Shown here one piece after another: positions 42,001-45,000 of a stretch of 64,000 bases of DNA. How positions within the stretch are numbered: position 1 is the stretch's first letter; the number at the start of each line of letters is the position of its first letter. The stretch comes from Treponemataceae bacterium. Lineage in GTDB: Bacteria > Spirochaetota > Spirochaetia > Treponematales > Rectinemataceae. The position numbers are program-made. The DNA is taken from contig CAXXGJ010000038.1 of NCBI GenBank assembly GCA_963677895.2, positions 576,001-640,000 of the forward strand. Reading direction: 5' to 3'.

Positions 42001-45000
42001 GTACAGCCGAGGCGAGGACAGGGACGAGGTGGACGGCGTCGCCGTACCCAACAACATCTCCCCGGGAAACGTCAGGGGAGGCCTCACTACTATTGAAGAA
42101 AAATCGCTGGGCGCCATTTCCAAAGGCGGATACACCTGCCCTATCGTCGGCGTCGTCGAATACGCCGAGATGGTGGGCTCCACGCCGGGACTGTGGTTCA
42201 TGGATTCACCCGGCTACGATCCGGAATGCACGACGGGGCTCATGGCCTGCGGCTGCAATCTGGTGCTTTTCACCACCGGGCTTGGGACTCCCCTGGGAAA
42301 TCCCGTCACGCCTATCATCAAGGTCACCGGCAACAGGAAAACCGCGATGCAGATGAAAGACGATATCGACATAGACGTTTCCTCGATTCTCGAGGAAGGC
42401 GGCACCTTCGCGGAGGAGTCCGCGAAGATGATCGATTTTGTCGCGGTCATAGCGAATGGAACGCTGACAAAATCGGAAGCCTTCGGCTACGCCGACTTCG
42501 GCATCACCAGGATCGGCCCCCGGCTCTGATCCGCGGCCATCGGGCGGCGACATTTCGGGCGACGGCGTCTCTGGCGCCCTCACAACGGAGGATACATTGG
42601 AAGACATTGCGATCGATTTTGAAGAGCTCGTGAAGATTTCCGCCGCCGCTCTCCAGCGCGCCGGATTTCCGGCCGACAAGAGCGAGGAAGCGGCTCGCGT
42701 GCTGGTCGAGGCGGACTCAAGAGGGATCCGCTCCCACGGCGTCGTCCGCCTGACCCGATATCTCAGCGAAGCGAAACAAGGGTTCATCCGCCCCGAGGCC
42801 GAGCCCGAGGTCGTCTTCGAGACGCCAGTCTCCCTCGTGGTGGACGGAAACAGGGGTTTGGGGCAGCACGTGTCGATCTTCGCCATGGAGCGCTGCATCG
42901 AGAAGGCCGAAGCAAGCTATATCTGCTTCGCTACCGTCAGGAATTCCAACCATTTCGGGATCGCGGGCTATTACTCGGAGCTGGCGCAGAAAAAAGGCAT
43001 GATAGGAATCTCGATGACCAACACCTATCCGCTGGTCGTCCCCACCTTCGGAAGGGAAGCCATGCTCGGAACGAATCCGATCGCCGTCTGCATCCCCGGC
43101 ACGAGGGTTCCTTTCCACATGGACATGGCGACGAGCGTGGTCCCGAGAGGCAAGATCGAAGTGAAGCTCCGCGCAGGGCAGCCGATACCCGAGGGCTGGG
43201 CCGTCGACGAGAACGGCTCTCGGACCACGGATGCCGAAGCTGTCATCCACAACTTCAACACGCACTCCTATGGCGGCATCCTGCCTTTAGGCGGGGAAGG
43301 CGAAGGATTCGGCGGCCATAAGGGATTCGGCCTGGCCACCCTCGTCGACCTGCTTTCCGCGGGCTTGTCGCTAGGACAGATGAGCCGCGACACCTACACC
43401 GACCAGGGAGGCGGCGTCTGCCACTTCTTCGGCGCGATCCGCGTGGAAGCCTTCGGGGACGCTCAGGCTATCAGGGCCGAGGTGCAGGACATCATGGATA
43501 GGCTCTGCGCCAGCCCCAGATCCTCGGGCAAGGATAAGATTTACTTCCACGGGGAGAAGGAGATGGCGGCGAGGGCGAATTCGATGAAGGATGGCGTGCG
43601 GCTGCCGAAATCCCTCCTCGACGACATCAGCGCCCTCGCGGAATAGAATCCCCCGAAAGTCTAGATAATTTTGCCATCGAAGGAATCGCGAAGATGAATG
43701 CTGCGAAAATTCTTCCCAGATCCAATTTTTCTTCCATCGAGGTGAGGCTCGATTCCGCGAACTCGATCGTCCTCGACGGATCGGCCGCGAAATCGGCGCG
43801 CTTCGCGCAAAGCCTGCCCGGGCCGCTGCCAAGACAGGGCGCCGCGCTACGCGGGGCGATCAACGAAGCCCTATCTTCCCGTCACGGGCCGGCCCTCGAG
43901 GACATCGTCAACCCGCGAAAGCGCGTGATCTACGCCATCGACGACCACACCCGGGGAACCCCTACGGCTCCCATTCTGGAGAGACTTCAGGAGCGGCTGA
44001 ACGCCATGGGCCTCTCGGACTCGCAGACGATGATCCTGGTCTCGGCCGGCACGCATAGGCCTATGAACGAACAGGAACTCCGCATGAAGGTCGGCGGGCT
44101 TTACGGCCGCGTGGAAATTATCCTGCATGACTGCATGAATTCCGGGGAACTGTACAAAGCCGGGATTATCGATGGCATTCCCGTTCTTCTCAACAAGAAC
44201 CTAAGGGACGCGGGCACGGTGATCGGCATCGGCAGCCTCGTGGCCCACAAGTTCTCGGGCTGGTCAGGCGGCGCCAAGATCGTCTGTCCAGGGCTGACAG
44301 GGTACGAAACGATCTATCGCTGCCACTACAAATCCATCATCGAAGAACATATCATCCCCGGACAGAAGGACAACTGGTTCCGGGGATTCATCGACAGGAT
44401 CGGCGATCTCGCGGGGCTGAAATACAGCGTCAACTGTATCCCCACGATCGGCGGTCTCGTCGGCGTCGTGGCGGGCGATCCCCATGCCGCCTTTGACAGA
44501 AGCGTCTCCATCGCCGAAGACTTCATGGCCACCTCGTTCGAGAAAAAACATGACCTCGTGGTGGTCTCGGCCTACCCAGCGACCACGGACCTATGGCAGA
44601 GCGGCAAAGGCTTTTACAATGGGGACCTGCTCGTCAAGGATGGCGGGACTCTCGTCCTCGTCACGCCGCTCGATGAAGGGCTGGGCGACCACCCGGAGTT
44701 CATCTCTCTTCTCGAGAAAAGCCCCGCGGAAATCCTGGCTGTCCTCGATTCCGGAAAGCTTGAAGATCCCTTGGCGGCCGTGGCATCCTATGCAATCCGC
44801 CGCATCAGCGAAAGGTGCAGGTTGAGAATCGTGACGAACAACCGCTCGATCGTCGGGCATGACCTGCTGGGCGCGCCAATTTCGGGAGACATCGACAGCG
44901 CGACTGCCGAGGCTTTTCGGGATGGGGCTCGGGACCTCGCCGTTGTCAATGACAGCTATATCCTCCCAAAAACGCTTGTCGAAGGCTGATCCGATGGAGC

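Follow-up and report, generated by a model that had tools for sequence, protein, structure and literature searches.

The LarA-type gene and its surroundings

The window analyzed here, a stretch of 64 kb, contains an intact open reading frame on the forward strand (positions 43694–44989) encoding a LarA-superfamily protein of 431 amino acids. The gene sits within a catabolic cluster of 15 genes (Table 1). The Liv-type transporter adjoins a LarA homologue in three of five annotated loci from other genomes (L040, L045, and L050), and a gene for an HMGL-like enzyme is a neighbor in loci L038, L040, L045, and L050. The small dehydratase open reading frame was found to match the N-terminal end of the model for galactarate dehydratase. 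IolO was ruled out as the identity of the TIM barrel protein, which scored 113.8 on the IolO model against a cut-off of 300.

Table 1. Genes of the catabolic cluster in the window, with the matches on which the assignments are based.
Position	Strand	Assigned product	Basis
31552–32697	+	Liv-type ABC transporter substrate-binding protein	Peripla_BP_6, 212 bits
32790–33683	+	ABC permease	BPD_transp_2, 109 bits
33625–34689	+	ABC permease	BPD_transp_2, 129 bits
34692–35456	+	ABC ATPase	ABC_tran, 104 bits
35453–36184	+	ABC ATPase	ABC_tran, 102 bits
36262–37530	+	HMGL-like aldolase/lyase-type enzyme	PF00682, 211.8 bits
37534–38586	+	Butyrate kinase family protein	TIGR02707, 313.3 vs 289.1 bits; Pfam Acetate_kinase
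38583–39533	+	Phosphate butyryl/acetyl-transferase-like protein	PTA_PTB, 100 bits; under NCBIfam equivalog cut-offs
39506–40363	+	Xylose-isomerase-like TIM barrel (keto-acid epimerase/isomerase type)	AP_endonuc_2, 104.3 bits
40360–41061	+	GntR/FCD transcription regulator	GntR and FCD domains
41066–41344	+	Split UxaA/GarD-type sugar-acid dehydratase, small SAF-like subunit	GD_AH_second, GD_AH_C (for the split dehydratase as a whole)
41348–42529	+	Split UxaA/GarD-type sugar-acid dehydratase, large subunit	as above
42597–43646	+	Ldh_2-family 2-hydroxyacid dehydrogenase	PF02615, 389.2 bits; under all NCBIfam equivalog cut-offs
43694–44989	+	LarA-superfamily 2-hydroxyacid racemase/epimerase homologue, clade without named family	Lar_N, 133.2 bits
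45023–46222	+	M20 amidohydrolase	Peptidase_M20, M20_dimer; TIGR01891, 303.8 vs 153.75

A six-frame search of the whole genome (3.51 Mb in 39 contigs, 92.76% complete, 5.46% contamination) located Lar_N in four places, on contigs C38, C25, C2, and C4, the same four that were listed in the genome-wide survey's note. That note placed the C4 copy on a strain-variant contig. This is contradicted by an identity of only 45% to the C2 copy and by the GC content of the C4 contig, which is 41–50% compared to 54–60% around the window gene. The C4 copy is a separate gene, possibly foreign, on a contig of differing composition. The other LarA paralogues of the genome exceed the NCBIfam equivalog cut-offs for families dependent on the nickel-pincer nucleotide (NPN).

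Fold and active site of the window protein

Lar_N (PF09861) matched residues 54–217 of the window protein with 133.2 bits (gathering cut-off 23.3) and was the sole Pfam domain reported. No match to Pfam LarA_C (PF21113) was found in the protein (P0001), and its closest homologues (P0002–P0022) were also without a precomputed PF21113 match. The best solved relatives were Mar2 (6d6z, E 6.2e-32) and LarA (5huq, E 4.4e-23), in agreement with the alignments given in the survey's note. An AlphaFold2 model (pLDDT 94.2, pTM 0.91) was matched by Foldseek to 5huq_A with an E-value of 4e-31 and a TM-score of 0.84 over 445 alignment columns. The model predicts a two-domain LarA fold that aligns with holo-LarA over its full length.

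The catalytic histidines of LarA1 are H108 and H174, while R75, K184, and H200 are reported to bind NPN (PMC11770544). All five are kept in the window protein, where R87, H121, H185, K195, and H211 align with R75, H108, H174, K184, and H200 of 5huq_A, respectively, and they were invariant in the 23 aligned clade members (P0001 and P0003–P0024). Across all 32 aligned sequences the positions of H108, H174, R75, and K184 were invariant, whereas the H200 position was His in 28 and Gln in four of the nine more distant ones. The Gln/Lys positions for the substrate carboxylate were invariant in the alignment of window-protein homologues.

None of the NCBIfam LarAH equivalog cut-offs was reached. The best score was 189 (cut-off 500) for the MAR LarAH6 model, followed by MAR LarAH5 (167, cut-off 462), LarA (154, cut-off 460), and LarAH10 (152, cut-off 540). 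On these scores the window protein would be classed as a member of the LarA superfamily (DUF2088) only, outside any named LarAH family. The gene is under purifying selection, with a dN/dS of 0.10–0.15 within its own genus, which lacks LarB, LarC, and LarE (LarBCE).

Genes for NPN synthesis and nickel import

In six-frame searches of the whole genome LarC (PF01969) gave no match, even at E ≤ 10, and the best match to LarE (TIGR00268) reached 30.7 bits compared to a cut-off of 150. The best TIGR00268 matches were NadE, TilS, TtcA, and GuaA. The LarB model NF033503 (cut-off 175 bits) had no match at E ≤ 1e-30 in the genome. PF00731 had one real match, at 113462–113890 of contig C18 between purC and purF; this is PurE, the sole gene of the genome with an AIRC domain. 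The survey's statement that LarC, LarE, and LarB are missing was thereby reproduced, and it extends wider, as CbiM/NikM (PF01891) was also without a match in the genome and closed genomes and a second order were found to be alike. Neither NicO nor a [NiFe] hydrogenase was found in the genome. The loss of CbiM is no proof that nickel is not handled, since nickel could enter through ABC systems of the peptide/nickel type.

Distribution in the family, the phylum, and a second order

LarC was found in 12 of the 68 other genomes of the family (three of 21 genera, and neither of the two others in its own genus) and Lar_N in 67 of them. The survey's note had the same LarC counts, and its figure of at least 62 genomes with Lar_N is consistent with our recount. 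The 12 genomes with LarC, out of 69 in the family, were precisely those that had LarE and LarB. Lar_N was present in 56 of the 57 LarBCE-less genomes, one of which (G014; five contigs, 99% complete) had seven Lar_N matches. The family includes 38 genomes with a completeness of 90% or more and a contamination of 5% or less; 31 of these had no LarC, with the same tally for LarE and LarB.

Both annotated loci of LarBCE-positive relatives had the module order cbiM-cbiQ-ABC ATPase-larE-larC-larB, and CbiM shared a contig with the lar genes in each of the 12 LarBCE-positive genomes. It scored over the cut-off in six of the 57 LarBCE-less genomes and in none of the three genomes of its own genus.

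Outside the family, 49 of 250 other genomes of the phylum had a strong Lar_N match. Nine of the 49 were without LarC, including the one-contig genomes G272 and G130, and none of the five of these nine tested further had LarE or LarB over the cut-off. Of 51 genomes from a second order, one had LarC and 23 others had a strong Lar_N match, so that all 23 of the latter were without LarC. LarC was also missing from all 14 genomes with window-clade relatives that are titled Spirochaetales, Cryosericum, Kosmotogales/Mesotoga, or Firmicutes/Bacillota.

One orthogroup of the hexonate-epimerase type (NF052594, 584 against a cut-off of 500; orthologues by blastp) was found in four LarBCE-positive and 15 LarBCE-less genomes. 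The residues at the positions of D72, T74, R75, H108, H174, K184, and H200 were identical in all 19.

The known NPN pathway is truly absent from this genome rather than lost in an assembly gap, since LarB, LarC, and LarE are absent together throughout most of the family, closed genomes elsewhere in the phylum are in the same state, and a second order is alike. The LarA homologues nevertheless look like genuine NPN users, judging from their invariant binding residues, the purifying selection, and the identical sites of orthologues from genomes with and without the maker genes. The window enzyme would presumably be active in vivo, with NPN as its cofactor.

Source of the cofactor

The genome-wide survey's note had offered two readings, an NPN auxotroph or an unknown route of synthesis. 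The absence of the pathway on which both were built is real, and the data do not decide between the two. We tentatively favor uptake of finished NPN, or of a late precursor, from community members (probability about 0.45) over an unrecognized route. The LarA homologue would change the configuration at C2 of its substrate, a 2-hydroxy acid that is probably a small hydroxy-dicarboxylic or sugar acid, with bound NPN accepting the hydride, and the product would feed the stereospecific dehydratase and dehydrogenase encoded alongside. The cell is unable to make NPN by the sole known route; the nickel importer and the larE-larC-larB genes are missing from its genus and from most of the family. Living or dead cells of other community members would release nickel-loaded NPN or a late precursor; this would be taken up, and the apoprotein would load itself with it. 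The lineage would thus be an NPN auxotroph, comparable to cobamide auxotrophs.

The loss of the nickel importer linked to lar tilts the balance toward an outside source of NPN. When prepared in vitro, free NPN withstands 80°C and switches on apo-LarA once the two are mixed, and NPN is not covalently bound in every homologue (PMC9283937). Necromass sustains a cultured relative (PMC6052044). The proteome supplements of the Rectinema paper contain no entry annotated as lactate racemase, though the family may simply go unnamed there. The lability of NPN-containing enzymes (PMC11796402) counts against uptake, and so does the scale of the pattern, as 56 species of one family and 23 of another order would need a steady supply of a rare cofactor. 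The genome completeness of 92.76% was also counted against this explanation.

Neighborhoods were annotated for the four LarA copies of the genome, for loci L036, L038, L040, L045, and L050 (5 of 78 loci), and for six loci in LarBCE-less genomes. No NPN importer or gene of an alternative pathway was found around these LarA homologues, where the transporters were of the substrate type only, and no transporter or gene of undetermined function recurred across the annotated loci. A CobW/COG0523 GTPase gene lies two genes upstream of the LarA homologue in G252 only. We know of no NPN importer, a further point against uptake.

Synthesis of NPN or a close pincer analogue without homologues of LarB, LarC, and LarE appears rather unlikely. 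It would account for the conservation of cofactor-binding residues in long-diverged lineages that have none of the three genes, across whole families and an order, and in closed genomes of presumably cultured strains, for which outside supply is least obvious. However, it requires three unrelated replacements, no conserved unknown gene adjoins the LarA homologues in the annotated loci, and the lar-linked nickel importer was lost jointly with larECB, the present genome having neither CbiM nor NicO. It is extremely improbable that the synthesis genes are present but escaped the searches because of gaps in the assembly, losses during binning, or extreme divergence. The genome is incomplete and in 39 contigs, and in family genome G025 a lar-type CbiM lies on contig 375 of about 400, so that lar genes may have been lost to fragmentation there. 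Three genes and a transporter would nevertheless have to be missed jointly in 57 genomes, including the high-quality ones counted above, while LarC gave nothing even at E ≤ 10 and control genomes gave the expected matches. Nor do assembly gaps account for the pattern, which recurs in one-contig spirochaete genomes and in a second order.

It is quite improbable that the LarA homologues of LarBCE-less genomes use another cofactor, or no NPN. The clade of the window protein has no Pfam LarA_C match, the protein scores below the cut-offs of all named LarAH models, and clade relatives occur in LarC-less genomes of four taxa. On the other hand, no substitution occurs in the clade at the nickel ligand His, the tethering Lys, or the phosphate-binding Arg, the other paralogues of the genome pass the cut-offs for NPN-dependent families, and the model aligns with holo-LarA from end to end. 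That one LarA orthogroup has identical active sites in maker and non-maker genera further argues against a differing cofactor. We give very little credence to a cofactor-free role such as binding or regulation, or to mostly idle apoproteins, considering that neither the two catalytic histidines nor the Gln/Lys positions for the substrate carboxylate vary, that the gene lies in a conserved catabolic operon beside a dehydratase and a dehydrogenase, and that dN/dS is low. A search for RNA sequencing runs containing the stretch listed none, a result that is neutral as to expression.

Comparison with known systems

Mar2 (LarAH6) of Thermoanaerobacterium thermosaccharolyticum (PDB 6D6Z/7S91), the best sequence match of solved structure, shares with the window protein its two-domain fold, its pair of catalytic histidines, and the Lys/His site for the cofactor. 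The window protein differs by its score far below the MAR equivalog cut-off, by a Lys-Phe after the second catalytic His, by its operon, and by a host without LarBCE. LarA of Lactiplantibacillus plantarum (PDB 5HUQ) has the same fold and the same five key residues. The larBCE and lar(MN)QO genes of L. plantarum resemble the module of the NPN-making relatives, in which a CbiM-type importer lies beside larE-larC-larB, whereas the user gene in the window stands alone, with no maker genes or linked nickel importer genome-wide. Its neighboring genes suggest that the substrate is not lactate.

The uptake of NPN would have a parallel in cobamide (B12) auxotrophy, in which a metal cofactor that is costly to make has far more users than makers and passes between members of a community. 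The importers and salvage enzymes of B12 have been described, whereas none was found here for NPN. The converse orphan case, LarBCE without LarA, occurs in about 15% of genomes, many of them cyanobacteria, and led to new NPN enzymes, the NphT aldo-keto reductases (PMC11796402; PMC13524815). The mismatch between makers and users across genomes is common to both cases, but here users are found without makers.

Implications

The literature examined assumes that the cell using NPN also makes it, by means of LarB, LarE, and LarC, and the presence of LarC serves as a predictor of NPN biology (PMC13524815). No mention of LarA without LarBCE was found in the texts searched, a partial coverage that leaves Desguin et al. 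2014 and two reviews outside its scope; the novelty claimed in the genome-wide survey's note was checked within that coverage.

It is a bold and rather unlikely generalization that several anaerobic lineages keep functional NPN enzymes because they can obtain the cofactor by a second means that does not involve LarBCE. The lineages would be most of the spirochaete family, an order of the Kosmotogales type, and probably also Cryosericum and some Bacillota. In its boldest form the second means would be a novel pathway that synthesizes NPN or a pincer analogue, in a milder form dedicated uptake and salvage with NPN as a traded public good.

Whole lineages, closed genomes included, keep multiple selected and apparently NPN-type enzymes without LarB, LarC, and LarE. 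Either NPN moves between cells, as a new shared cofactor whose importer would be novel, or a second route exists, and both readings are directly testable in strains of these groups. Either would alter the annotation of LarA homologues, which NCBIfam calls nickel-dependent whatever the host, and the way in which the nickel needs of anaerobic communities are read.

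Identity and conservation of the LarA homologue

The 431-codon open frame encodes a protein whose Lar_N domain scored 133.2 bits against the Pfam cut-off of 23.3, and LarA_C gave no Pfam match in it. By sequence the closest solved structure was malate racemase Mar2 (6d6z, E 6.2e-32), and the protein also matched the broad-spectrum LarA of Isosphaera (E 1.4e-28) and L. plantarum LarA (5huq, E 4.4e-23), reproducing the Mar2 and 5huq matches (E 6e-32 and 4e-23) of the genome-wide survey's note. Passages of PMC11770544 describe H108 and H174 of LarA as catalytic and R75, K184 and H200 as binding the nickel-pincer nucleotide (NPN). 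On alignment to 5huq_A all five residues are present, R75/H108/H174/K184/H200 corresponding to R87/H121/H185/K195/H211, as that note had held for the NPN/catalytic motifs. AlphaFold, given 32 sequences, yielded a model (mean pLDDT 94.2) with 5huq_A as its top structural match. Since this match spans the full length (TM 0.84), the C-terminal domain is predicted to be LarA-like, though invisible to Pfam. The protein falls under all named NCBIfam LarAH equivalog cut-offs (highest MAR, 189 vs. 500) and belongs to the LarA superfamily, in a clade that has no named family.

Searching 5.8 billion proteins, with 8000 candidates scored, gave 104 relatives at E ≤ 1e-20; about 22 of these relatives were at least 45% identical to the protein, every one metagenomic. 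D84, R87, H121, H185, K195, Q302 and K305 were invariant in the 32-sequence alignment (23 clade members and nine more distant rows; numbering of the protein studied here). H211 was present in 23/23 clade members and replaced by Q in four of the nine distant rows. Orthologues from the two other genomes of the genus were 97% and 95% identical, with dN/dS of 0.10-0.15 at dS 0.21-0.33 (Nei-Gojobori, on stop-to-stop frames that include some upstream codons). Against Cryosericum orthologues, where dS was saturated, dN/dS was ~0.11 by the same method.

Genomic context

The gene is the 14th in a co-directional cluster. Five of 78 related loci in other genomes were annotated (L036, L038, L040, L045 and L050; record titles Spirochaetales MAG, Candidatus Cryosericum, Kosmotogales and Bacillota); all five contained the LarA homologue together with the kinase, and each also had most other components, in varying order. 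The hydroxy-acid catabolic cluster that recurs elsewhere includes a Liv-type ABC transporter, the LarA homologue, an HMGL-like enzyme, a butyrate-kinase-like protein, a GntR regulator, an M20 hydrolase and a dehydratase of UxaA/GarD or IlvD type. We infer that the cluster forms a catabolic pathway around a predicted C2-inverting LarA homologue, in which C2 of an imported hydroxy acid would be inverted to supply a stereospecific dehydratase or dehydrogenase. Behind the second catalytic His stands an invariant Lys/Arg, a hint that the substrate may carry a second negative charge.

Features of the gene cluster, its surroundings and other loci
Feature	Position	Strand	Cluster
Liv-type ABC transporter, five genes			31552-46222
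HMGL-like enzyme			31552-46222
Butyrate-kinase family protein			31552-46222
Ptb-like protein			31552-46222
Xylose-isomerase-like TIM barrel			31552-46222
GntR/FCD regulator			31552-46222
Split UxaA/GarD-type dehydratase			31552-46222
Ldh_2 dehydrogenase			31552-46222
LarA homologue	43694-44989	+	31552-46222
M20 amidohydrolase			31552-46222
Separate sugar-acid module: GntR/FCD regulator, two enolase-superfamily dehydratase-type genes, TRAP transporter (DctP, DctQ, DctM)	24939-31275
719-codon open frame, no family match, antisense to HMGL-like and kinase genes; most probably a shadow frame within high-GC coding DNA	36283-38442	-
Indigoidine_A-family gene (433 bits) overlapping end of PfkB kinase gene; looks like a pseudouridine-catabolism-type pair	47030-48956	-
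Group-22 LarA homologue with TRAP transporter, enolase-superfamily enzyme and DUF362 protein (contig C4)	L026 (G000:C4:12000-31999), 9215-15829
Single PurE of the genome (contig C18)	L013 (G000:C18:111962-115390), 1357-1992
Lar-type CbiM, 213.6 bits (genome G025)	G025:C375:6847-7497
CobW/COG0523-type metallochaperone GTPase two genes upstream of LarA homologue (genome G252)	L115 (G252:C10:12000-30000), 5766-6800

A profile search found Lar_N at four places in the genome. The gene on contig C25 exceeded the NCBIfam equivalog cut-off for "nickel-dependent putative hexonate epimerase" (584 vs. 500), and those on C2 and C4 exceeded that for "nickel pincer cofactor-dependent isomerase, group 22" (502 and 498 vs. 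400). All three adjoin TRAP or TTT transporters and sugar-acid dehydratases, and their proteins, judged by eye, carry an Arg, two His, a Lys and a further His at LarA-like spacing. The C4 and C2 proteins are only 45% identical, GC content is 41-50% on C4 vs. 54-60% near the gene studied here, and reported contamination is 5.46%; the C4 gene may be foreign to this organism. The DUF362 protein beside it is a distant LarA relative.

Distribution of LarA and the NPN synthesis genes

LarC (PF01969) gave no match in the genome even at E ≤ 10, LarE (TIGR00268) at most 30.7 bits vs. the cut-off of 150, and LarB (NF033503) none at E ≤ 1e-30; control genomes matched as expected in these searches. The low-scoring TIGR00268 matches were NAD synthase, TilS, TtcA and GMP synthase, and only one AIRC-domain gene is present, flanked by purC and purF. 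The absence of all three makers (LarBCE) that the survey had noted stands. The single PurE, at 129.9 bits under its model cut-off of 149.6, may belong to a divergent (class II-like) type. Also absent were NicO and the large subunit of [NiFe] hydrogenase.

Among 69 family genomes, this one included, LarC, LarE and LarB exceeded their cut-offs in the identical 12, from three genera. The two annotated lar loci read cbiM (with PDGLE domain), cbiQ, ABC ATPase, larE, larC, larB, and all 12 genomes carry CbiM, a nickel-importer component, on the lar contig. Lar_N (E ≤ 0.001) was found in 56/57 LarBCE-less genomes, the exception being G001; in one further genome the best match was below the Pfam cut-off. 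LarBCE-less G014 (5 contigs, 99% completeness) had seven Lar_N matches. CbiM exceeded its cut-off in six of the 57 (G003, G015, G016, G017, G025 and G030) and in 0/3 genomes of the genus studied here. G025, whose CbiM lies on contig number 375 of about 400, is the only LarBCE-less genome in its genus; fragmentation may account for its missing lar genes.

In a phylum sample of 250 other genomes, each at least 90% complete, LarC was found in 87 and strong Lar_N (E ≤ 1e-25) in 49. Cross-tabulated by hand, LarC was present in 40 of the 49 and absent from nine (G121, G130, G145, G159, G188, G218, G228, G252 and G272), among which G272 and G130 consist of one contig and G228 of two. Five of the nine were tested further: none had LarE at E ≤ 1e-10 or LarB over its cut-off, the LarB-model matches being ~170-aa frames of 42-52 bits vs. 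175. G272 and G188 have canonical LarA genes (Lar_N ~240 bits, LarA_C ~220 bits). In LarBCE-less G252 the LarA homologue near the CobW-type GTPase, a single case, is followed by malic enzyme. Spirochaete genus g27 (13 genomes) had LarC in five and canonical LarA in two, with no overlap, which would fit a producer/consumer split between sister species.

We also searched 50 of the 78 genomes reached via relatives of the protein, a choice fixed before any result that left out L035 and L037 (own-family), L069 (second contig of an included MAG) and 25 others. LarC was found in 29, including the unpublished genomes G336 and G361. Among 51 genomes of the order surrounding the Mesotoga MAG, LarC occurred in one and strong Lar_N in 23, without overlap; 0/5 tested of these 23 had LarE or LarB over cut-off.

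LarC in 50 genomes grouped by record title (MAG completeness not given)
Group	LarC
Spirochaetales	0/1
Cryosericum	0/2
Kosmotogales/Mesotoga	0/5
Firmicutes/Bacillota	0/6
Halanaerobiales	1/1
Acidobacteria/Pyrinomonadaceae	6/6
Planctomycetota	5/7
Chloroflexota	2/4
Delta-type lineages (Deltaproteobacteria, Syntrophaceae, Thermodesulfobacteriota) and Polyangiaceae	10/10
Gemmatimonadales	3/3
Gaiellaceae	0/1
Other Spirochaetota	1/3
Cloacibacillus	1/1

The opposite mismatch, genomes with LarBCE but lacking LarA, is well documented in passages of PMC11796402 and PMC13524815. LarA homologues in LarBCE-less genomes were not mentioned in the available portions of PMC11770544, PMC7583248, PMC12611868, PMC13510736 and PMC9283937, nor in the PMC7583248 supplement. 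Full-text literature searches on nickel-pincer orphans or auxotrophs (the latter judged by the titles of the papers listed) turned up nothing on the subject. An earlier mention is conceivable, likeliest in the genome survey of Desguin et al. 2014.

Cofactor identity and source

It is very unlikely that LarBCE genes are present and were missed. The LarA homologues of LarBCE-less genomes could instead work with a different cofactor, and here residue data speak against. Eighteen orthologues (42-95% identical to the C25 protein) were picked among weak Lar_N matches in the family; with that protein they form a hexonate-epimerase-type orthogroup of 19, four members from LarBCE-positive and 15 from LarBCE-less genomes, this one included. 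The residues at positions D72, T74, R75, H108, H174, K184 and H200, and the Glu-Val directly after the second His, were identical in 19/19. Such identity between maker and non-maker orthologues argues that the ligand of the orphan enzymes is the one bound by their counterparts in maker genomes, and a different cofactor is disfavoured.

Supply of NPN from outside the cell has, in our estimate, a probability of about 0.45. Against it, no importer turned up among the annotated neighbours of LarA homologues, NPN-containing enzymes lack stability, and a pattern on this scale would demand a steady supply; no NPN importer is known. Synthesis by an unknown internal route appears unlikely. Between the two we lean towards outside supply, because the dedicated nickel importer was lost together with the synthesis genes, because free NPN activates the apoprotein through simple mixing and is covalently held in some cases but not all (in parts of PMC9283937), and because a cultured member of this family is sustained, according to a portion of PMC6052044, by the dead biomass of its partners.
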